Source: Sphingobacteriales bacterium (lineage in GTDB: Bacteria; Bacteroidota; Bacteroidia; Chitinophagales; JADIYW01). From it: DNA of 64,000 nucleotides. This document shows, piece after piece, positions 12,356 to 21,252 of the stretch. The stretch is taken from contig CANHGL010000007.1 of assembly GCA_947460245.1 (NCBI GenBank), forward strand, positions 7,739 to 71,738. Reading direction: 5' to 3'. Position numbers and translations under genes: made by a program. The stretch's first letter is position 1. Each line of letters begins with the position of its first letter. The notes beneath the pieces were generated by a model. That model saw only the letters and a list, made by a program, of their open reading frames with translations. It did no database searches and had not been told where the DNA came from.

Positions 12356-13282
12356 ATGAAAAGAATACTATTTTTTGGCAGTATCTGTTTCTTTTTGTTT
12401 TCCTGTAAAAAAAATGATACACCAGCAGCAGAGCCAAGGTTGATTTTTAAGTTTAAATTTGATTCTACTCAGATTAGATTGAATAATACAGGAGATCCTT
12501 CCTTTGTGCCTGCAGGAAATGCAGCCCAATCACCCGTTTTTCATAGTATGTCTGCTCATTATATTGAGATTGCACAGGAGGCTTTAACGCCATTTGGAAG
12601 TTTATCAAACGTCTTATACAAAAATGCAGAAGTTACTACAGGTGGATCAAATGCAATTGATTTTTCTAAATCTATTATCAAAGCTGAAGGAGAAGAATTC
12701 TTTTCAGTGCCTTTGAAAAACTTAAAGCCAGACACCTATAAATGGTTGAGAATATCTTTAGCATATCAAAACTATGATATCAAAATGACATATAGAACTC
12801 CATCATATAACAGTGGCAATCCTTTTGAAATTAATGGCACAGTCGCTTCTTTCTTAGGTTTTAATACTTATGTCACTTCCTATGATTTGAATGGGGAGAC
12901 AATGGTTGTCAACGCAAATAGGAAACAGGGGTATGGAGCGGTAAAACCTTTCAATATTCCTGTTTTAGGCACCATTAATGCAGTATCTTGGAATCCGCCT
13001 GCAACAGGCAGAACAACTGTTGTAAATCCTTATGCAGTGGCATTGGGTATACCTGCAGGATCATGTCTGGTAGTGGCACAGTTTTCCAATCCAATAGTAA
13101 TTACAGGAAGTGAAATAAAAGATATCGTTGTTACTGTGTCTTTATCTATTAATAAAAGCTTTGAATGGGTAGATAAGAATCAGGATGGTTTATTCGAGCC
13201 TATCGATGGCTTGAATGGAAATGCCATAATGGATTCCGTAGTAGATATGGGTATACGGGGTATGATTCCAATTGTTAATTAA
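12356..13282 (+). CDS. Hypothetical lipoprotein
   Basis: The signal sequence with lipobox reads ...CFFLFSCKK, with Cys at position 17. The protein is beta-rich and I recognise no catalytic motif. Confidence 0.65.
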   Translation: MKRILFFGSICFFLFSCKKNDTPAAEPRLIFKFKFDSTQIRLNNTGDPSFVPAGNAAQSPVFHSMSAHYIEIAQEALTPFGSLSNVLYKNAEVTTGGSNAIDFSKSIIKAEGEEFFSVPLKNLKPDTYKWLRISLAYQNYDIKMTYRTPSYNSGNPFEINGTVASFLGFNTYVTSYDLNGETMVVNANRKQGYGAVKPFNIPVLGTINAVSWNPPATGRTTVVNPYAVALGIPAGSCLVVAQFSNPIVITGSEIKDIVVTVSLSINKSFEWVDKNQDGLFEPIDGLNGNAIMDSVVDMGIRGMIPIVN

Positions 13283-13831
13283 TTACTGTCCGTATTGAAT
13301 AGGTAGGGTTATATAGCAGTTTACCTCTTTGCCATTTTGTTTCCCGGGGGTCCACTTGGGCATGCCGTCTATCAGCATAATAGTTTGTAAGTCAAAAGAC
13401 GGATCATTTGTCTTTATTATTTTTGGATCTTTTGCATCTCCAAGCGTATTGATATAGAATTTAATCATCACAGTTGCTTTCTTGCCCACTAGGGTGTCCG
13501 GAATAAATGCAATTCCAGATGCTATGTAGTCTTTTAGTCCCTTGTCTCCATCCGGGAATTGCGGCATAAGTTCTGCTTTCTCCAGGATTATACTTTCATC
13601 GTCTATATTTGAAGCGGAAGTACTTTGATTTTCTTCAGTTTTCGTTTGATACATAAATGGTCGTGCAATCGAGTCGGCACGACGCTCTCCCTCTAGCATC
13701 TTCTCAATATCGCCACCGTACTTACTGTAGAGGATATCATTTTTTGGGTAAGAATTCTTGGGAGGTTTAAATCCTGTCATTACAATAAATACAAATAATA
13801 TAATTAGTATGGATAGGTGTCTGTTTTTCAT
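13283..13831 (-). CDS. TonB C-terminal-domain-like protein (short, no Pro-rich spacer)
   Basis: It has an N-terminal TM segment. The C-terminal ~90 aa read AELMPQFPDGDKGLKDYI...VMIKFYINTLGDAKDPKI...MPKWTPGKQNGKEVNCYITLPIQY, which matches the TonB_C / energy-transducer pattern. Confidence 0.6.
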   Translation of the reverse strand: MKNRHLSILIILFVFIVMTGFKPPKNSYPKNDILYSKYGGDIEKMLEGERRADSIARPFMYQTKTEENQSTSASNIDDESIILEKAELMPQFPDGDKGLKDYIASGIAFIPDTLVGKKATVMIKFYINTLGDAKDPKIIKTNDPSFDLQTIMLIDGMPKWTPGKQNGKEVNCYITLPIQYGQ

Positions 13832-13906: not shown

Positions 13907-14254
13907 TCATTGCTTGTATTGATAGGCTCCAATAAAGGAAACTATTGAAAATATAAAGTAAGCTATAAAAAAGAATAAAAATGCAATAGTTGTGGGTTCT
14001 TTAACCATCAATAGATAGATAATTACCAATAGGGCTGAAAGGCAGAATTTAATGGTAATGGCAGCAATATTAGATCCCAGCATTTTTTTAGACCCGGATT
14101 TATTATACCTGCGGATAATTAGGTAATGTATAATAGATATCGATGCCATGCCTAAGCTCATCCATCTATAAGCAAAAACAAGGTGTTGGTCAATAAAGAA
14201 ACTGCTAAGTATGAATAACAGGGCGATAATGATTATCAAAACTGGCCATTTCAT
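13907..14254 (-). CDS. Small integral membrane protein (about 4 TM), function unknown
   Basis: This 115-aa protein is almost entirely hydrophobic helices. Its ATG start lies 1 nt downstream of the preceding gene's stop, so it is the last gene of the M23-bactofilin operon. Confidence 0.6.
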   Translation of the reverse strand: MKWPVLIIIIALLFILSSFFIDQHLVFAYRWMSLGMASISIIHYLIIRRYNKSGSKKMLGSNIAAITIKFCLSALLVIIYLLMVKEPTTIAFLFFFIAYFIFSIVSFIGAYQYKQ

Positions 14255-14255
14255 T

Positions 14256-14480
14256 TTAGCGCATTTGTTTCATAATTCTATAAAAGCTGATGAAAAAGCC
14301 AGCGCACAATAATAAAATTACAAGAAATGGAGTAGTGTGAAATTTCTTATCAAGGAAATATCCTAAAGCCGTGAAAATACCTATGAAAGCAAACATCTCG
14401 AAGGCCATGCCAGTGTATGCGAGCCAGCTCTTGTTGCTTTTATCCGGCTGTTTGCGCTGCACTTGTTTGGGACTGTCCAT
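14256..14480 (-). CDS. AtpZ/AtpI-like small membrane protein
   Basis: The protein is 74 aa. A basic N-terminus is followed by WLAYTGMAFEMFAFIGIFTALGYFLDKKF and a second TM segment, which is the layout of AtpZ-type proteins. Its ATG at 14480 overlaps the bactofilin 3' end by 41 nt. Confidence 0.55.
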   Translation of the reverse strand: MDSPKQVQRKQPDKSNKSWLAYTGMAFEMFAFIGIFTALGYFLDKKFHTTPFLVILLLCAGFFISFYRIMKQMR

Positions 14481-14874
14481 TGCCGGCAGTGTTTTGAGTG
14501 GATTGGTGAAGTGGTTTTGTTACAGTAGATGAGTTTACCAATGATCCACTGATATTTGCCCCTTCTTCCACAATCAGTTTTTTATACCTTACCTCACCTT
14601 CAAATGCTGCAGTAGATCTAAAAAACAGAATGCCATTAACATCTAAATTCCCTTTTATTTTTCCCTCTATAGTGAGGTCATTACACTTGATGTGTCCTGT
14701 AATTTGTGCCTGAGGTCCAATAACTACCTTGGAAGAGCTGCTGATATTGCCTAATACCTTTCCATCTAAACGAATATCTGTCTGTGCAGATATATCACCT
14801 GTGATAGTGGTTCCTTCATTTATTTTATTAGCGACCATAGTTTCTATATTGCTTTTCTGAATCTTTGTAAACAT
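14440..14874 (-). CDS. Bactofilin family polymer-forming cytoskeletal protein
   Basis: A repetitive beta-helix pattern is present: TTITGDISAQTDIRLDGKVLGNISSSSKVVIGPQAQITGHIKCNDLTIEGKIKGNLDV. The C-terminal tail is S/T/Q-rich. The track start at 14880 is TTG, and the ATG at 14874 (MFTKIQ) is more likely. Confidence 0.85.
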   Translation of the reverse strand: MFTKIQKSNIETMVANKINEGTTITGDISAQTDIRLDGKVLGNISSSSKVVIGPQAQITGHIKCNDLTIEGKIKGNLDVNGILFFRSTAAFEGEVRYKKLIVEEGANISGSLVNSSTVTKPLHQSTQNTAGNGQSQTSAAQTAG

Positions 14875-14880
14875 ATGCAA

Positions 14881-15744
14881 TTATTTTAAAAATTTAGAGG
14901 GATCAAAGGATTGACCTTTGTACCAAATTTCAAGGCTACAGGAATAACCTTTTGTGGAATTACTCTTTCCAGCGTTGGCTATAACTTCACCGCGACTTAC
15001 GAAGGTACCTATTTTCTTTAATATTTTACTGTTATTTTTTAATATGTATACTAGTTGATTTTCAGACTGTACAGCAATAAAATACTGATCTGTAGTGGTA
15101 TATCCTGTTAGTATAACATGCCCAGGGAGTACCGCCTTTACCGCCTCTTCGGGATCAGCAGAGAGTTCAATATTCCTTGTATTTTGACTGAATTTAGTAA
15201 GGATACCACCAGAAACTGGAGCATACAACGCTAAGTCTTTTAAGCCATTTGTGCGTGCATCCTGAACTGATTTTAATAATTCTATATTTTGTAGCCCTTT
15301 CTCCATATTCCCAATGAACTTGGATTCATCGTTTGATTTTAGGCTAAGAACGCTCGTGTCTACATTTACTTTATTGATTTTACCGGTAACGGCATCCACA
15401 ACAACCTTGCTATTTAGGATATTTTGAAGATTTGTAAGGTATTTCTGTTGTGCTAGCATTTTTTCTTCCAAGTCTTCTGACTTCATACTGATTTTTAGTA
15501 TTTCCTTACGACCATAAGAGGATCCATACCCCGGAACATATTGTTTTAGCGGTGTGAATGAAATCAGTGCAAAATTTAAGAAGGTGAAAAAAAGAATTAC
15601 CAACCCACTGATGATAATAACATTCAGCCTATTGAGTTCTATTACCATCTTCACGGCATAGCTCTTCTCATCAATAATCTGAAAACGGTAGGTGTCTTTT
15701 AACTTTTCTCGCCATTTGTTCCAGCGCTGTCTGTTTATTGCCAT
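14881..15744 (-). CDS. Membrane-anchored M23/LytM-fold protein with degenerate active site
   Basis: It has an N-terminal TM segment (VIIISGLVILFFTFLNFALISF). The C-terminal LytM fold shows PVSGGILTKF...GEVIANAGKS...DPSKFL, but the canonical HxxxD and HxH positions read NIELS and CSLEIW. Confidence 0.75.
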   Translation of the reverse strand: MAINRQRWNKWREKLKDTYRFQIIDEKSYAVKMVIELNRLNVIIISGLVILFFTFLNFALISFTPLKQYVPGYGSSYGRKEILKISMKSEDLEEKMLAQQKYLTNLQNILNSKVVVDAVTGKINKVNVDTSVLSLKSNDESKFIGNMEKGLQNIELLKSVQDARTNGLKDLALYAPVSGGILTKFSQNTRNIELSADPEEAVKAVLPGHVILTGYTTTDQYFIAVQSENQLVYILKNNSKILKKIGTFVSRGEVIANAGKSNSTKGYSCSLEIWYKGQSFDPSKFLK

Positions 15745-15828
15745 GTGAGATGATGATTAAGCAAATTTCACTGAAATAAGTAAAATAAATTTAGGAAATT
15801 GCGTTAAAATTAGGGAATTATAACGAGC

Positions 15829-18800
15829 ATGCGTCTATCTACGGCTAAAAAACTGCTACTCTTGACTTTATCTCTTGTCTTTTTTTTGGTAGACAGTTCA
15901 GCTGAAAACAAAAAGAAGAAGGCGTCTGAGTATCAAAAACCTAACATTATCAAGATGGCATGGGGTGATCTCACTACCCGAAATAATTACTATTTCAATG
16001 CCAGTGAGTTATTTAAGGAGATTGTCCATAATTATGAGTTTCAGCGTCAGTTAGATTACAATGAACTTCTGCCTTTCTATTTTCATGACGGTGCAGATTT
16101 TTCTGGTAATACCACTGAATTAGAAACCATAGCCCGCAAAACCGGTATAGTCTTGCAGTTGCATGATTATAGTCGCTGGAGGGATAATGCATTTTTATTG
16201 TTAGGTAAGTCGCAGTTTCTCAGGAAGCAATATGATACTTCTCTAATTACTTTCCAGTACATCGTAACAACGATGAAGCCTGGAAAGATGAATATGAAAG
16301 TTGAATTTAGTAATAAAGACCGCCTGAAATATATTCGTAAGCGACAAAAAGAGTTGGCAAAAAAAGCTGGGGAGAAGAAGAAATTTATTGAAATTAAATT
16401 TAAGAAGGATCAGGAAGAGGCCCAGCAAAAGGCAGAAACAGCCCGTGAAAAGCAATTAGCTGCCATCAAGCAAAAGCAAAAACAATTAGAAGAAATAATT
16501 AAGGCAAAAAAGAAAATCATTGCTTTACAAAAGAAAGGAAAGAAGATTCCTCCTGAACTTTTAGCCAAGGCGAAAGCCAAGACCACCAAAGTTGATTCTG
16601 CAACTATACAGCAAGTTCAGCCTATCAAGAAAACACAAAAGCCTAATTACGCCACCAATCTGCCTTATATTCTGTTGGGGGATCAGTATGTTAAAAATCC
16701 ATACTATAAAGATTCCACTGGTGACAGAGCTAACCAAAGACCATTGGATAGTTTATCAAAGAAAGCAGAAGAAAAATTTGATAAACTTAGTTTTTGGGAA
16801 AAAATCAAACACAAACCATCTCGGCCTGAAGCAATTGTATGGATGGCTAAATCCCTTATAGAACTTGAAAACTATGCGGATGCAAAAAGTATGATTTCTT
16901 ACGGTAAGGCATTGCGTAAATTAACCAAAAAGCAACGTCGTGAGTTTTATCTTATAGATGCATATTATCATATCCGAAGAGAGGATTATTCTCCCGCTAT
17001 TGAGGAGATCGAAAATGCTTTACTTTATTTCAAGAAGAAAAAAGACAAAGCCTATTATGAATACATCTTAGCCCAGTTGTATTCAAAAAATAATCAGCCT
17101 GCGGACGCTGTAGATTATTTTGTTAAGGCGGGTAAGCACACTAAAACAGAGGAAATGACTCTTTTCTCTCAAATGCAGTTGGCTAATTTATACAGTAAAA
17201 ATCCTGATCTGGCAGATCAGGATGTGGTGAATATGTTATCTAAATTGATTCGATTTGGAAAGAACAGGGAGCATGCAGACGAGGTGTTCTATACCATGGC
17301 TAATTATTTTTATTTTCAGAAAGATACTACCAATGCAGTGGTCTTCTTGCAAAAGTCGGTTAATAAATCTATAGCTAATCCAAACCAAAAAGGAAAGTCC
17401 TTTCTGCGTTTAGGAGAGATTGCTTATGATAGAGAAGACTATGTAGTAGCTGCAGGTTTTTACGATAGTGCTATAGCTTATTTGCCTGTTGGATATGAAA
17501 ACTATGATCAGATTCAAAGCAGAAAGAAGACATTGAGTGAACTGGCTATTTATGTTCAGGTAATCAAAGAGCAAGATAGTCTTCAGCGTTTGGGAAAGTT
17601 AAGTCCCAAAGAATTGGATAAGTTTCTTTCTGATGTAAAATCAAAACAGGAAAAAGAGGAGCGAAAGAAATCGAGGTTTACATCAGAAGGAGGAGCGAAT
17701 ACAATACAGCAGACAGGTTTAGTATCTGCGAATGTTATTTCTAATGGCTTATGGTATTTTTACAACCTAGAAACAAAGAGTAAGGGGTTTAATGAGTTTG
17801 TAAGTATTTGGGGAGATAGAAAGCTGGAAGCTAATTGGAGAAGAAGTAATAAGAGTGGATTTACAGACGATTTTAATGCTCCTGCAATTAATACTATTGA
17901 TACCTCTTCCATCCCAGCTTCTAAAGGTATTAAGAGATTAGTGCCATTAAAAACTGCTACTGATAGTTTATCGATTCCGAAGACACCCGAGGCATTTATG
18001 GCGTCTGATAAGAAGATTGCAAATGCTCTTTTTGGTATCGGTGAAATCTTTAAAAATAAGTTGGGTAACCTTTCCAAAGCAAAGCAGGCATTTGATGATT
18101 TGATACGAAGGTATCCAAACAGTGAATTTGATGTCAAGGCTCATTACTATGAGTATCTTATTTATTTGGATTTAAACTTGGTAGGATTAGCCCAGAAAGA
18201 AAAACAATATATACTTGAAAATTATCCCATTTCAGAAGTTGCAGAGGTGTTAAATAAAAACGGAGTTAAGGATCCTTCAACAGCCTCATCTACCAGGGCG
18301 CAAATCCTTTATGATTCAACGTATCAATTATTTTTGTCAGGAAATTGTGATCAGGTAATTATCAATAAGAAGTTTGCCAAAATGAAATATCCTGCTGCTG
18401 CCGAACTTGCTAACTTTGAATTTTTAGAGGCTGTCTGTTATGGTAAAAACAAGCAATTTGATTTATATAAGAAAGCGTTGTCTGAGATTATAACAAAATA
18501 TCCATCAGGTGCCATTAGGCAGAAGGCGCTGGATTACTTATCCGCATATCTTGATTTTCAAGGAAAGCCTTCGGATACTCTGGCACAAAAGGTCTCCATT
18601 CCCAAAGATACAGTGACGATTATTAGAGATAGTCTGGCGGATGAGTTTATAGTAGATACTACTAATTTGTGGGTGTTAGTACAATTGAAAGATAAATACA
18701 TTCGTGTATCAGATGTTGTAGAACAGGTTAAAGTATTTAACCAAAAGAATTTTAGTGATTTGAAGTTGAAAATAAATCCTGTTTTTTTTGAAGGCTATGC

Positions 18801-19008
18801 AGTGCTTACAATCAAAAGATTTGAAGGTATTACGGATGCCCGAGAGTATTATGTAAAAATCAGAAATGTGTCTTCCAGTTTAGCGGGGGAGAATAATAGT
18901 AAGAATATTGCTTATTATATTCTGGCTCCATCCAACTTTAGAAAGATAAAGAAGCTTGATGATTTTGGTGCTTACACTAAATTTTTTGAACAAAATTATC
19001 CTAAATAA
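15829..19008 (+). CDS. Secreted 1059-aa TPR-repeat protein with a K/E-rich coiled-coil segment
   Basis: The signal peptide MRLSTAKKLLLLTLSLVFFLVDSSA has no lipobox Cys. Residues ~160-262 are a lysine/glutamate-rich heptad-like stretch. There are several TPR-like helical-pair blocks, for example YGKALRKL...YYHIRREDYSPAIEEIENAL...AQLYSKNNQPADAVDYFVKA. The stop TAA is directly followed by the PBP1a ATG. It may belong to the SprE/PorW-type TPR family, but I cannot verify that. Confidence 0.7.
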   Translation: MRLSTAKKLLLLTLSLVFFLVDSSAENKKKKASEYQKPNIIKMAWGDLTTRNNYYFNASELFKEIVHNYEFQRQLDYNELLPFYFHDGADFSGNTTELETIARKTGIVLQLHDYSRWRDNAFLLLGKSQFLRKQYDTSLITFQYIVTTMKPGKMNMKVEFSNKDRLKYIRKRQKELAKKAGEKKKFIEIKFKKDQEEAQQKAETAREKQLAAIKQKQKQLEEIIKAKKKIIALQKKGKKIPPELLAKAKAKTTKVDSATIQQVQPIKKTQKPNYATNLPYILLGDQYVKNPYYKDSTGDRANQRPLDSLSKKAEEKFDKLSFWEKIKHKPSRPEAIVWMAKSLIELENYADAKSMISYGKALRKLTKKQRREFYLIDAYYHIRREDYSPAIEEIENALLYFKKKKDKAYYEYILAQLYSKNNQPADAVDYFVKAGKHTKTEEMTLFSQMQLANLYSKNPDLADQDVVNMLSKLIRFGKNREHADEVFYTMANYFYFQKDTTNAVVFLQKSVNKSIANPNQKGKSFLRLGEIAYDREDYVVAAGFYDSAIAYLPVGYENYDQIQSRKKTLSELAIYVQVIKEQDSLQRLGKLSPKELDKFLSDVKSKQEKEERKKSRFTSEGGANTIQQTGLVSANVISNGLWYFYNLETKSKGFNEFVSIWGDRKLEANWRRSNKSGFTDDFNAPAINTIDTSSIPASKGIKRLVPLKTATDSLSIPKTPEAFMASDKKIANALFGIGEIFKNKLGNLSKAKQAFDDLIRRYPNSEFDVKAHYYEYLIYLDLNLVGLAQKEKQYILENYPISEVAEVLNKNGVKDPSTASSTRAQILYDSTYQLFLSGNCDQVIINKKFAKMKYPAAAELANFEFLEAVCYGKNKQFDLYKKALSEIITKYPSGAIRQKALDYLSAYLDFQGKPSDTLAQKVSIPKDTVTIIRDSLADEFIVDTTNLWVLVQLKDKYIRVSDVVEQVKVFNQKNFSDLKLKINPVFFEGYAVLTIKRFEGITDAREYYVKIRNVSSSLAGENNSKNIAYYILAPSNFRKIKKLDDFGAYTKFFEQNYPK

Positions 19009-21252
19009 ATGCGTAGAATGAAAGCGTGGTTATTGCAACCCAAGAACTTATGGAAGCTATTTGGCTTTGCTGTCTTGTCGGTTGTTATATTCTTTATGTT
19101 GGTGCGGGTGGGCTTATTCGGTCGTCTCCCAAGTTTTGATGAGCTCGAGAATCCAACGGCAAATCTTTCTTCTGAGATCTATTCGTCGGATTCTGTTTTG
19201 ATTGGTAAATATTATGTAGATAACCGAAGTAATGTATCGTACGAGGAATTGTCTCCATATTTGGTAAAGGCATTGGTAGCTAATGAAGATGAACGTTTTT
19301 ACGATCACTCCGGCATTGATCTTAAGCGTACTATAGCGGCTATATTCATGGCAGGTAGAACTGGTGGAGGGAGTACGGTAACGCAGCAACTAGCCAAAAA
19401 TATGTTTCATCATCAGGCGAGTAATATTATTCAACGTGTTTTTCAAAAGGCTAAAGAGTATATTATAGCTGTAATGTTGGAGAGGAGGTATACCAAAGAG
19501 GAAATTATTGCAATGTATTTCAATACTTTTGATTTTGTAAATAACGCAGTAGGAATTGAAAGTGCATCAAGGGTGTACTTTAATAAAAAACCCAACGAGT
19601 TGAGTGTTGAAGAGGCTGCTATGTTTGTAGGAATGTTACAAAATCCTTCTTATTATAATCCCAGAAGATTTGAGAAAAGGACCAGAGAGCGCAGGGCTAC
19701 TGTTTTAAGAAAATTGATGGAAACCGATGCTATTTCAGAAGCTCAGTTCCAATCTCTGAAAGAAAAACCCATACAACTTGATTTCCATCCAGAATCTGCT
19801 AATGATGGTTTGGCACCCTATTTTAGAATGATAGTTGCTGAAGAGTTAAAAAAATGGGCCAAAGAAAACAAAAAACCAGATGGAGAGCCCTATAATATTT
19901 ACACAGACGGACTCAAGATCTATACTACTTTGGATTCCCGTATGCAGAAATATGCAGAAGAGGCAGCATTGCAACACCTTACCTATTACCAGTCGTTGTT
20001 TAACGCACAATTCAAGGCTGGTTGGAATCCTTGGGAAACCGACAAGGGTAAGGCAATAATATTAAGTGCAATAAAGTATACAGATCGTTGGCACTCCCTT
20101 AAAGATCAAGGCTTAAGCAAGGAGGATATTTTAGAGAATTTCAAAACGAAGAAAGAGAAGATGCGTGTCTTTACCTATCGTGGTTTAAAAGATACTACTA
20201 TGACGGCTTGGGATTCAGTTAAGTACTATAGATCATTTTTGCAGATTGGTATGATGGCAGTGGAGCCATATACGGGCTATGTTCGTGCATGGGTTGGTGG
20301 TCCTAAATTTGAATATTTTAAGTACGATCACTGTAATGTAAATACAAAACGACAAGTAGGATCTACTTTTAAACCGGTGCAATATGCCCTCGCAGTAGAT
20401 AATGGATGGTCGCCATGTATGAGTATTCCAACCGGTCCAATTACGGTTACTTATCAAGGCACAGTCTGGGAACCTAAAAATTCCGGTAGATACAGTGGAA
20501 ATTATCCTATGAAGTTTTGTCTTGCACGTTCTATCAACAGAGCGGCTGCTTATATGATGAAGAATTTTGGACCGGAAGCTCTGGTAGACTTATCCCACAA
20601 AATGGGAATAACTACAAATATTCCTACTGTCCCTTCTATTTGTTTGGGAGCAGGTGAAATTTCATTATATGAAATGATGACTGTTTATAGTACCTTTTGC
20701 AATGCAGGGATTAGCACTAAACCTCAATATCTATTAAGGATTGAAGATAAAGACGGAAATATTATCCAAAATTTTACTACGGAAATGAAAGAAGTATTTA
20801 GTGATAATACGGCTTATAAAATGTGTGAATTACTGAAAGGGCCTGTGTCATCTGGAGGTACTGCAGCTAGATTACGTTCCTATTTTACCTTCCCAACAGA
20901 TGTAGGTGGTAAAACGGGTACAACGAATAAGAATACAGATGCATGGTTTATCGGATTTACACCTCAATTACTCGCAGGTGTTTGGGTTGGATGTGATGAC
21001 CCATTACTTCGTTTTCTTTCTACTGATATTGGTCAAGGAGGGCATGCAGCAATGCCAGCCTGGGGGATGTTTATGCAGAAGGTATACAATGATCCCAAGT
21101 TAGCGCTTAATAAGGATGCCAAATTCTTTAGCCCATCTGATTCATCATTGCTTAAAAATGTTTGTAATGAGGGGGAAGAGATACTTATCAGTGGTGATGA
21201 TACCGGACAAGCTGATGAAGAGGTTCCTGATTCCGAATATGGTAAGAAATAG
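19009..21252 (+). CDS. mrcA: Penicillin-binding protein 1A (bifunctional glycosyltransferase/transpeptidase)
   Basis: GT51 motifs are EDERFYDHSGID and GGSTVTQQLAKN. Transpeptidase motifs are STFKP (SxxK) and KTGTT (KTG). An N-terminal TM anchor is present. Confidence 0.92.
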   Translation: MRRMKAWLLQPKNLWKLFGFAVLSVVIFFMLVRVGLFGRLPSFDELENPTANLSSEIYSSDSVLIGKYYVDNRSNVSYEELSPYLVKALVANEDERFYDHSGIDLKRTIAAIFMAGRTGGGSTVTQQLAKNMFHHQASNIIQRVFQKAKEYIIAVMLERRYTKEEIIAMYFNTFDFVNNAVGIESASRVYFNKKPNELSVEEAAMFVGMLQNPSYYNPRRFEKRTRERRATVLRKLMETDAISEAQFQSLKEKPIQLDFHPESANDGLAPYFRMIVAEELKKWAKENKKPDGEPYNIYTDGLKIYTTLDSRMQKYAEEAALQHLTYYQSLFNAQFKAGWNPWETDKGKAIILSAIKYTDRWHSLKDQGLSKEDILENFKTKKEKMRVFTYRGLKDTTMTAWDSVKYYRSFLQIGMMAVEPYTGYVRAWVGGPKFEYFKYDHCNVNTKRQVGSTFKPVQYALAVDNGWSPCMSIPTGPITVTYQGTVWEPKNSGRYSGNYPMKFCLARSINRAAAYMMKNFGPEALVDLSHKMGITTNIPTVPSICLGAGEISLYEMMTVYSTFCNAGISTKPQYLLRIEDKDGNIIQNFTTEMKEVFSDNTAYKMCELLKGPVSSGGTAARLRSYFTFPTDVGGKTGTTNKNTDAWFIGFTPQLLAGVWVGCDDPLLRFLSTDIGQGGHAAMPAWGMFMQKVYNDPKLALNKDAKFFSPSDSSLLKNVCNEGEEILISGDDTGQADEEVPDSEYGKK

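Follow-up and report, generated by a model that had tools for sequence, protein, structure and literature searches.

Four closely packed minus-strand genes at positions 13907–15744 of a 64-kb stretch of Sphingobacteriales DNA (contig CANHGL010000007.1; the whole stretch is referred to as the window) encode an M23-family protein with a LytM domain, a bactofilin, an AtpZ-family protein and a small membrane protein with four transmembrane (TM) helices. We consider it probable that this locus is a lineage-specific version of a Bacteroidota gene neighbourhood, composed of porW, a divergent LmdC-type M23 gene and a bactofilin–atpZ–4TM unit, in which the LytM protein is now a functional pseudo-enzyme positioned by the bactofilin. 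Every zinc-binding and catalytic residue of the LytM domain is substituted throughout the clade of the window, and the dead domain is under purifying selection. The four genes are as follows.

14881–15744, minus strand: M23/LytM-domain gene, 287 aa (six-frame open reading frame (ORF) listing and reverse-strand sequence; Pfam PF01551)
14440–14880, minus strand: bactofilin gene, ORF from the TTG at 14880 (Pfam PF04519)
14256–14480, minus strand: AtpZ-family gene (PF09527, ATPase_gene1), two TM segments, 74 aa (Pfam)
13907–14254, minus strand: four-helix membrane protein gene at the AtpI position (the 'sI' slot between AtpZ and atpB), 115 aa (iterative hidden Markov models, HMMs)

Relatives were collected in a scan of one genome per species, which gave at least 492; the best 80 loci were analysed with our own ORF calling, phmmer and iterated HMMs. 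We distinguish a close group of 27 loci, including the window, from metagenome-assembled genomes (MAGs) labelled Chitinophagales or Sphingobacteriales (45–66% identity), and a distant group of 54 loci (27–35% identity) labelled Bacteroidales, Flavobacteriales, Saprospiraceae, Lentimicrobium, Sphingobacteriia or, for some MAGs, 'Chlorobiota'. The close packing of the four genes had been described in a first-pass annotation, and six-frame ORFs and the reverse-strand sequence agreed with it: the M23 stop codon (14881–14883) adjoins the bactofilin ORF, the bactofilin and AtpZ ORFs overlap by 41 nt, and a single nucleotide separates the AtpZ gene from the 4TM gene. The linkage, which the annotation expected to recur in relatives, did so. 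All 27 close loci hold M23–bactofilin–AtpZ, the two shortest contigs ending before the 4TM gene. As the same gene order is found in 27 of 27 clade loci, the packing of the operon is not due to chance.

Catalytic residues, architecture and selection in the LytM protein

The M23 domain of the window protein is recognized by Pfam PF01551 (E 1.4e-11, 44.9 bits against a cut-off of 28.7), and a database search returned 58 relatives. An intact relative of equal length and architecture (P0057, 28% identity) carries the motifs HFGVD, IQH, YKH and GPHLHFE. In the window protein, the histidine and aspartate of HxxxD are replaced by T189 and E193, the mid-domain histidine by S227, the histidine of YxH by N237 and those of HxH by S268 and S270. 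The six zinc-ligand and catalytic positions H, D, H, H, H, H thus read T, E, S, N, S, S, both in the alignment with P0057 and in that of 80 orthologues. This mapping is validated by the alignment of P0057 with the solved active enzyme NMB0315 (PDB 3slu), which it matches motif for motif (E 4e-18). The window protein itself reached only E 0.005 in the PDB sequence search, with EnvC as best match. It lacks the HxxxD and HxH zinc ligands as well as the two catalytic histidines of an active M23 enzyme. The loss of all these residues had been proposed in the first-pass annotation and was borne out at six of six positions. In that annotation, two motifs were shifted by one or two residues: the mid-domain histidine corresponds to the S of VQS rather than to Q, and YxH corresponds to L-K-N rather than to YILK. 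That intact ligands had merely been misplaced is ruled out by the alignments with P0057 and 3slu.

An AlphaFold2 (AF2) model of the protein had a mean predicted local distance difference test score (pLDDT) of 68, rising to ∼80 in the LytM domain. Its secondary structure comprises a helix (3–15), a β-hairpin (strands 18–24 and 31–38), a TM helix (39–63), two periplasmic helices (76–110 and 140–165) and a β-domain (181–280). The predicted layout is a cytoplasmic tail (1–38), a TM helix (∼39–63), a juxtamembrane motif (64–74) and the degenerate LytM (dLytM) domain (∼175–287). The architecture of the LmdC clade, a tail with a β-hairpin and a single TM helix followed by one or two coiled-coil helices in the periplasm and by a LytM domain at the C terminus, is seen in the AF2 model; the active LytM domain that is a stated feature of this clade is missing. 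We therefore predict a bitopic protein of LmdC-type architecture, with an N-terminal membrane anchor and a cytoplasmic tail. Phylum-wide, the most conserved parts of the family are the hairpin residues Y19, R20, V31 and K32 and the juxtamembrane motif TPLKxYxPGYG. In the form TPLKQY(I/V)PGYG (TPLKQYVPGYG in the window, 15523–15555 on the minus strand), this motif is near-invariant in intact and dead members alike and is more conserved than the LytM domain.

Foldseek searches with the AF2 model placed EnvC first (8c0j; 4bh5 with a root-mean-square deviation of 1.7 Å and a target TM-score of 0.81) together with DipM (7qrl), with the active enzymes ShyA and Csd1/2 closely behind; the Csd1–Csd2 structure 5j1l was among the matches. 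The likeness to EnvC- and NlpD-type dLytM proteins suggested by the first-pass annotation is therefore sound as regards the degeneracy and the best PDB matches, EnvC and DipM, but does not extend to family membership. The EnvC model NF008644 gave 18.2 bits against a cut-off of 270, and a TM anchor replaces the signal peptide; the DipM model gave 29.6 bits against 740, and Pfam detected no LysM domain. With all three NCBIfam cut-offs far from reached and a different architecture and mode of anchoring, membership of the EnvC, NlpD or DipM families is ruled out.

We next turn to the history of the catalytic loss. All six catalytic residues are absent in each of the 27 close loci, whereas the HDHHHH pattern is kept in 50 of 53 aligned distant orthologues. 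In a neighbour-joining tree, the dead clade was monophyletic on one long stem, with L030 and L034 as nearest loci, followed by L071. Both L034 and L071 encode an intact enzyme in the same M23–bactofilin–AtpZ operon as the dead clade. As the dead clade sits on one stem and these intact relatives share its operon, the operon predates the loss, which was a single ancestral event in one clade of freshwater Chitinophagales-type MAGs. Across Bacteroidota an intact M23 peptidase is encoded, and the window gene is its positional orthologue. The three exceptions among the distant orthologues are L030 (8001–8849), which reads RDHMTH and so differs at three of six positions, L032 (HDHQHH) and L059 (HDHYHH). 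Partial losses thus occur in two of eight loci with the M23–bactofilin operon arrangement (L030 and L059) versus one of ∼44 others. L030 and likewise the other two represent independent partial losses in orthologues that otherwise remain intact.

Selection on the dead domain was assessed from Nei–Gojobori ratios of non-synonymous to synonymous substitution rates (dN/dS) in the seven clade pairs with unsaturated dS. For the LytM domain, dN/dS was 0.04–0.36, with values of at most 0.12 in six of the seven pairs; for the tail–TM region it was 0–0.07. Within the clade, conservation reaches 90% or more in 29 of the 115 columns of the LytM domain. With a mean majority frequency of 0.68, against 0.73–0.96 for the remaining regions, the domain is the least conserved part of the protein in the clade; among the intact orthologues no other large region is as conserved. 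Near-invariant blocks of the dLytM domain are ENQLVYILKNNS, LKKTGNFV and LELWY(K/R)GQ. Full length is kept in all 27 clade loci, with no frameshifts or truncations. Constraint on the dead LytM domain is therefore relaxed yet clearly present. Pseudogene-like decay is ruled out by the dN/dS values. Together, the purifying selection on the dead domain, the tail and the juxtamembrane motif indicates a functional pseudo-enzyme.

Neighbourhood of the operon across Bacteroidota

The four genes are contiguous also in eight more distant loci. In 29 of the 54 distant loci, porW is immediately followed by the bactofilin gene, the M23 gene is divergent on the other side of porW, and AtpZ and/or a ∼125-aa 4TM protein follow the bactofilin. 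Among the 39 distant loci with a bactofilin gene, AtpZ was detected in 32 and the 4TM protein in 29. In 10 of 29 loci, atpB-E-F-H(-A) were detected after bactofilin–AtpZ–4TM; elsewhere the flank ends first or other genes come next. L059 contains the single string M23–bactofilin–AtpZ–4TM–atpB–atpE–atpF–atpH–atpA–atpG, in which each atp gene was verified with Pfam. The order bactofilin–AtpZ–4TM–atp matches the inferred ancestral atp order, which runs I (PF09527), sI (PF03899), then A-C-B-delta-alpha-gamma (PMC4154653). The proposal of the first-pass annotation that the AtpZ-like and 4TM proteins are novel, obligate partners of this module did not hold, as bactofilin–AtpZ–4TM recurs as a unit throughout the phylum, usually behind porW and ahead of atpBEFHAG. 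In Lentimicrobium-type Bacteroidales (L040, 2562–3682; L075, 3110–4158), the genes that come next after porW–bactofilin–AtpZ–4TM are those for 6-pyruvoyl-tetrahydropterin synthase and GTP cyclohydrolase I, with no atpB in that place. The 64-kb window is devoid of atp structural genes, and none turned up within 8 kb at any of the 27 clade loci.

In most Bacteroidota the M23 gene lies outside the bactofilin operon, divergent from porW and followed by dxr–rseP. This arrangement, with an intact M23 gene followed by dxr (DXP reductoisomerase) and rseP (M50 site-2 protease), is seen in Bacteroidales and Flavobacteriales (L035–L083; for example L061, 8862–12845, and L036, 8866–11446). Flavobacteriales-type loci such as L061 have a GH3-family gene between the M23 gene and dxr. 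In one Bacteroidales subgroup (L036, L045, L046, L050, L069 and L081), a P-type cation ATPase gene (∼880 aa; L036, 4812–7454) lies between porW and the M23 gene.

Where the flank is long enough, 43 of 47 distant loci and 21 of 22 close loci carry a divergent porW upstream of the M23 gene; when it is also required to lie within 400 bp, the counts are 32 of 47 and 21 of 22. The TPR protein of the window matches the PorW/SprE equivalog model NF052312 (E 3.9e-135, 452 bits against a cut-off of 250). The features flanking the operon in the window are as follows.

13283–13831, minus strand: TonB_C-domain gene with an N-terminal hydrophobic segment (Pfam PF03544, E 1.3e-9)
15745–15828, no strand: intergenic region of 84 bp separating the divergent dLytM and porW genes
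15829–19008, plus strand: porW/sprE, periplasmic tetratricopeptide repeat (TPR) lipoprotein gene of the T9SS (type IX secretion system) (NCBIfam NF052312)
19009–21252, plus strand: class A penicillin-binding protein gene of PBP1a type (Pfam Transgly and Transpeptidase; TIGR02074, E 1.4e-140)

The 84-bp divergent spacer and the TPR–PBP1a pair across it were both noted in the first-pass annotation and are present, with the TPR protein now identified as PorW/SprE of the T9SS. The porW and PBP1a genes join without a gap (19008/19009), and Chitinophagales-type loci share this pairing, which is not conserved in Bacteroidales or Flavobacteriales. Scans for terminators and for sigma-70 patterns, the latter covering the 84-bp divergent region, gave nothing above shuffled expectation, as expected for Bacteroidota promoters. 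On the other side of the operon, the TonB_C gene is co-directional, starts 75 bp downstream of the 4TM gene and is directly 3' of it in 21 of 27 clade loci; it may belong to the transcription unit as a fifth gene in the clade of the window. Convergent on the operon is a gene (12356–13282, plus strand) for a predicted 308-aa lipoprotein (MKRILFFGSICFFLFSC...) without a Pfam family; a gene of similar size (305–314 aa) occupies this place in most clade loci.

The bactofilin matches Pfam PF04519 (E 8.7e-27, 93.7 bits against a cut-off of 27.9) and has a β-helix domain and an N-terminal targeting sequence. Its start is most likely the ATG at 14874 (MFTKIQKS), which leaves a gap of 6 nt after the M23 stop codon, because clade N termini read MFSK.., 144 aa is the length in independent gene calls and bactofilins have MFSKKKK as their published membrane-targeting consensus (PMC12448750). 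Many Bacteroidales bactofilins at the conserved position (L035–L081) begin with MAKNNIPE... or MAK.QE... rather than with MF(S/T)K, and may reach the membrane by another route.

AtpZ matches Pfam PF09527 (E 2e-15, 57 bits against a cut-off of 26.6) and has two hydrophobic segments. Its orthologues lie directly upstream of the 4TM gene and atpB in L059, L064 and L074, whereas atpB is not adjacent in the window. The overlap of the bactofilin and AtpZ ORFs is kept in 27 of 27 close and 27 of 32 distant loci; the start of AtpZ, and with it the overlap, look real because the N terminus MD(K/S)P is conserved in the clade. As to the 115-aa protein, the four TM helices reported in the first-pass annotation appear as four hydrophobic segments in the family alignment, although only three pass a strict hydropathy cut-off. 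Pfam gave no match for the window protein. An iterated HMM built from it recruited the ∼125-aa proteins between AtpZ and atpB (56 matches in 56 loci). Sub-threshold matches to PF03899 (AtpI) were found in 4 of 34 family members (best E 0.0065) and to DUF6168 (PF19665) in 2 of 34. A profile search of 5.8 billion proteins returned 16 relatives, all unannotated or 'hypothetical' and without a Pfam domain. The last TM helix of the family carries a conserved acidic residue (motif Y-x-I-F-T-x-F-E/D-V); 21 of the 22 distant members have E or D there. In the low-identity alignment, the dLytM clade tentatively has S, N or T at the same position, in 12 of 12 members (S106 in the window). Read tentatively, this coincident change in two operon proteins would favour a clade-wide functional shift.

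Proposed function and competing explanations

By analogy with known systems, the most likely function of the window protein would be that of a bactofilin-positioned, non-enzymatic LytM regulator or scaffold. On this reading, the neighbourhood shared across Bacteroidota consists of porW, a divergent gene for a membrane-anchored LmdC-type M23 protein and a bactofilin–atpZ–4TM unit that ancestrally leads into atpBEFHAG. In Chitinophagales-type genomes, this unit lies directly behind the M23 gene, cut off from atpB, to give the four-gene operon, and in one freshwater MAG clade a single event removed all LytM zinc ligands and catalytic histidines. On the model of BacA–LmdC, EnvC, DipM and Csd2, the bactofilin might polymerise at the inner face of the membrane via its MFTK N terminus and capture the β-hairpin tail of the dLytM protein. 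The dLytM domain, thus positioned in the periplasm, could bind peptidoglycan and/or switch on or gate another hydrolase at defined sites, most likely an amidase or an active endopeptidase. AtpZ and the 4TM protein would by default be atp-leader membrane proteins that are tied to the bactofilin gene as hitch-hikers or through co-translation. The uncharacterised envelope-remodelling module put forward in the first-pass annotation is upheld in its conserved linkage and its degenerate LytM domain, but it is not wholly new: it is a rearranged, catalytically dead version of a shared Bacteroidota neighbourhood.

Several points weigh against this model. The cytoplasmic hairpin is of low confidence in the AF2 model (pLDDT 52–59), no amidase or active M23 partner was identified, with no second M23 gene in the 64-kb window, and the low conservation of the LytM domain within the clade is compatible with a reduced role. 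The bactofilin–AtpZ–4TM trio persists without an adjacent atpB in Chitinophagales- and Lentimicrobium-type genomes and its ORF overlap is conserved; it is therefore a stable unit, and AtpZ and the 4TM protein may be real partners of the bactofilin and not passengers. The 4TM protein, a member of an unannotated Bacteroidota family, fits AtpI in size, four-helix topology and slot, and is a candidate, not an established, member of the AtpI family. From here one could go further and regard bactofilin–AtpZ–4TM as a Bacteroidota membrane unit of its own, co-translated via overlapping ORFs and tied to porW with or without a following atpBEFHAG, in which the small proteins partner or anchor the bactofilin instead of acting as ATP-synthase chaperones, and which couples the scaffold to wall remodelling (M23/dLytM, PBP1a) and to envelope machines driven by the proton-motive force. 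This unit would have been re-purposed as a whole in the clade of the window, because LytM catalysis and the membrane-embedded carboxylate of the 4TM protein are both lost there. We hold this extended version to be unlikely. A similarly low standing belongs to the idea that all four products form one envelope-remodelling complex, with the dLytM protein as an EnvC/NlpD-like amidase activator and the AtpZ-like and 4TM proteins as obligate novel partners. The contiguity of the four genes in the clade and in eight more distant loci, the translational coupling suggested by the bactofilin/AtpZ overlap, the persistence of the trio without an adjoining atpB, the EnvC and DipM structures as best matches of the LytM domain and the clade-specific change of the membrane-embedded E/D in the 4TM protein would all fit such a complex. 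However, 29 of 54 distant loci place bactofilin–AtpZ–4TM behind porW, and before atpBEFHAG where the flank reaches, rather than with M23; AtpZ is a genuine atp-leader protein of PF09527; the EnvC, NlpD and DipM models score far under their cut-offs, with a differing mode of anchoring; and no ftsEX was seen in the mapped neighbourhood of the window operon, nor a LysM domain or amidase gene nearby.

The selection on the LytM domain could also reflect a Csd2-like role, in which the dead protein forms a heterodimer with an active M23 endopeptidase encoded at another site and stabilises or gates it, the way Csd2 acts on Csd1 beside CcmA. Csd1 and Csd2 derive from the LmdC clade (PMC8416486), and 5j1l is among the structural matches. 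We nevertheless judge this role rather improbable, since the window protein has no adjacent active paralogue, no second M23 gene occurs in the window and the gene is the positional orthologue of an active enzyme and not a tandem duplicate. Many trans-envelope machines employ dedicated peptidoglycan hydrolases, and the recurrent divergent porW upstream of the M23 gene could accordingly mean that M23/dLytM is tied to the type IX secretion and gliding apparatus, where it would make or mark openings in the peptidoglycan, with the bactofilin and atp genes as neighbours by descent. Such a tie would explain the porW pairing, yet a dead enzyme is unable to open peptidoglycan itself, synteny alone may reflect ancestry and the T9SS literature that was searched gave no experimental link, so that we rate it as very unlikely. 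Least credible of all is that the degenerate LytM domain is a decaying relic without a function of its own, so that what matters is the tail, TM helix and stalk only, or no part at all. The domain is indeed relatively the least conserved region in the clade, and the residues at the substituted positions vary between members; against decay stand dN/dS values of 0.04–0.12 in six of seven pairs, full length in all 27 loci without frameshift or truncation, and near-invariant blocks such as ENQLVYILKNNS and LELWY. Overall, a rearranged Bacteroidota neighbourhood with a bactofilin-positioned LytM pseudo-enzyme is the reading we prefer.

Bactofilin–M23 modules are an emerging theme of bacterial morphogenesis, and the locus described here offers a natural enzyme-to-pseudo-enzyme conversion within one orthologous, syntenic gene. 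The graded series from intact (L034, L071) through partly decayed (L030) to the fully dead yet selected clade makes testable what a bactofilin-tethered LytM protein does without cutting. As stated in the first-pass annotation, no characterised Bacteroidota bactofilin or bactofilin–M23 pair was found in the literature searched; nor did that literature yield any description of the porW–M23 pairing, of a bactofilin–atp linkage or of the phylum-wide linkage of porW, the M23 gene, the bactofilin and the atp-leader genes. Tractable species such as Flavobacterium johnsoniae could address this linkage, if the arrangement is present there. The individual parts are all of known families, and no new biochemistry is implied yet.

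Comparison with known systems

The AtpZ–4TM pair resembles the atpZ–atpI leaders of the Bacillus pseudofirmus OF4 type (the 'I-sI' of Koumandou and Kossida 2014), in which a PF09527 two-TM protein is followed by a four-TM protein of ∼120 aa; in relatives of the window, the pair lies directly upstream of atpB-E-F-H-A-G. In contrast to these leaders, the window pair is separated from atpB and its 4TM protein has no PF03899 match, and throughout Bacteroidota a bactofilin gene precedes and overlaps atpZ.

With EnvC, NlpD and DipM, the window protein shares a degenerate LytM domain kept under selection, and its closest PDB matches are EnvC (4bh5, 8c0j) and DipM (7qrl). EnvC, however, is secreted and held by FtsEX via a long coiled coil, whereas the window protein has an N-terminal TM anchor and a conserved cytoplasmic tail. 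NlpD is a LysM lipoprotein and DipM has four LysM domains.

Adjacent bactofilin–M23 genes have been catalogued in 226 species, including the FCB (Fibrobacteres–Chlorobi–Bacteroidetes) group, and LmdC is a bitopic M23 protein with a TM helix and a coiled coil whose conserved cytoplasmic β-hairpin binds the bactofilin BacA (Pohl et al. 2024, PMC10945521). The LmdC clade is defined by a TM helix, one or two coiled coils and a LytM domain (PMC8416486). The window operon and BacA–LmdC of Hyphomonas neptunium and Rhodospirillum rubrum have in common adjacent bactofilin and M23 genes, a bactofilin N terminus MF(S/T)K and a bitopic M23 protein in which a short predicted β-hairpin tail and a TM helix lead to a helical stalk in the periplasm and a LytM domain at the C terminus. 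They differ in that LmdC is an active DD-endopeptidase whereas the window protein is without any ligand, and in that the window operon continues with AtpZ and the AtpI-position protein and lies beside porW–PBP1a.

Csd1–Csd2–CcmA of Helicobacter pylori differs from the window operon in that Csd2 adjoins and heterodimerises with its active paralogue Csd1, whereas the dead protein of the window is the sole positional orthologue and has no active paralogue nearby. Both systems encode an inactive LytM protein together with a bactofilin, that of Helicobacter (Csd2) being of LmdC ancestry. Csd2, which acts in cell-shape control, is a precedent for a dead LmdC-derived LytM protein beside a bactofilin.

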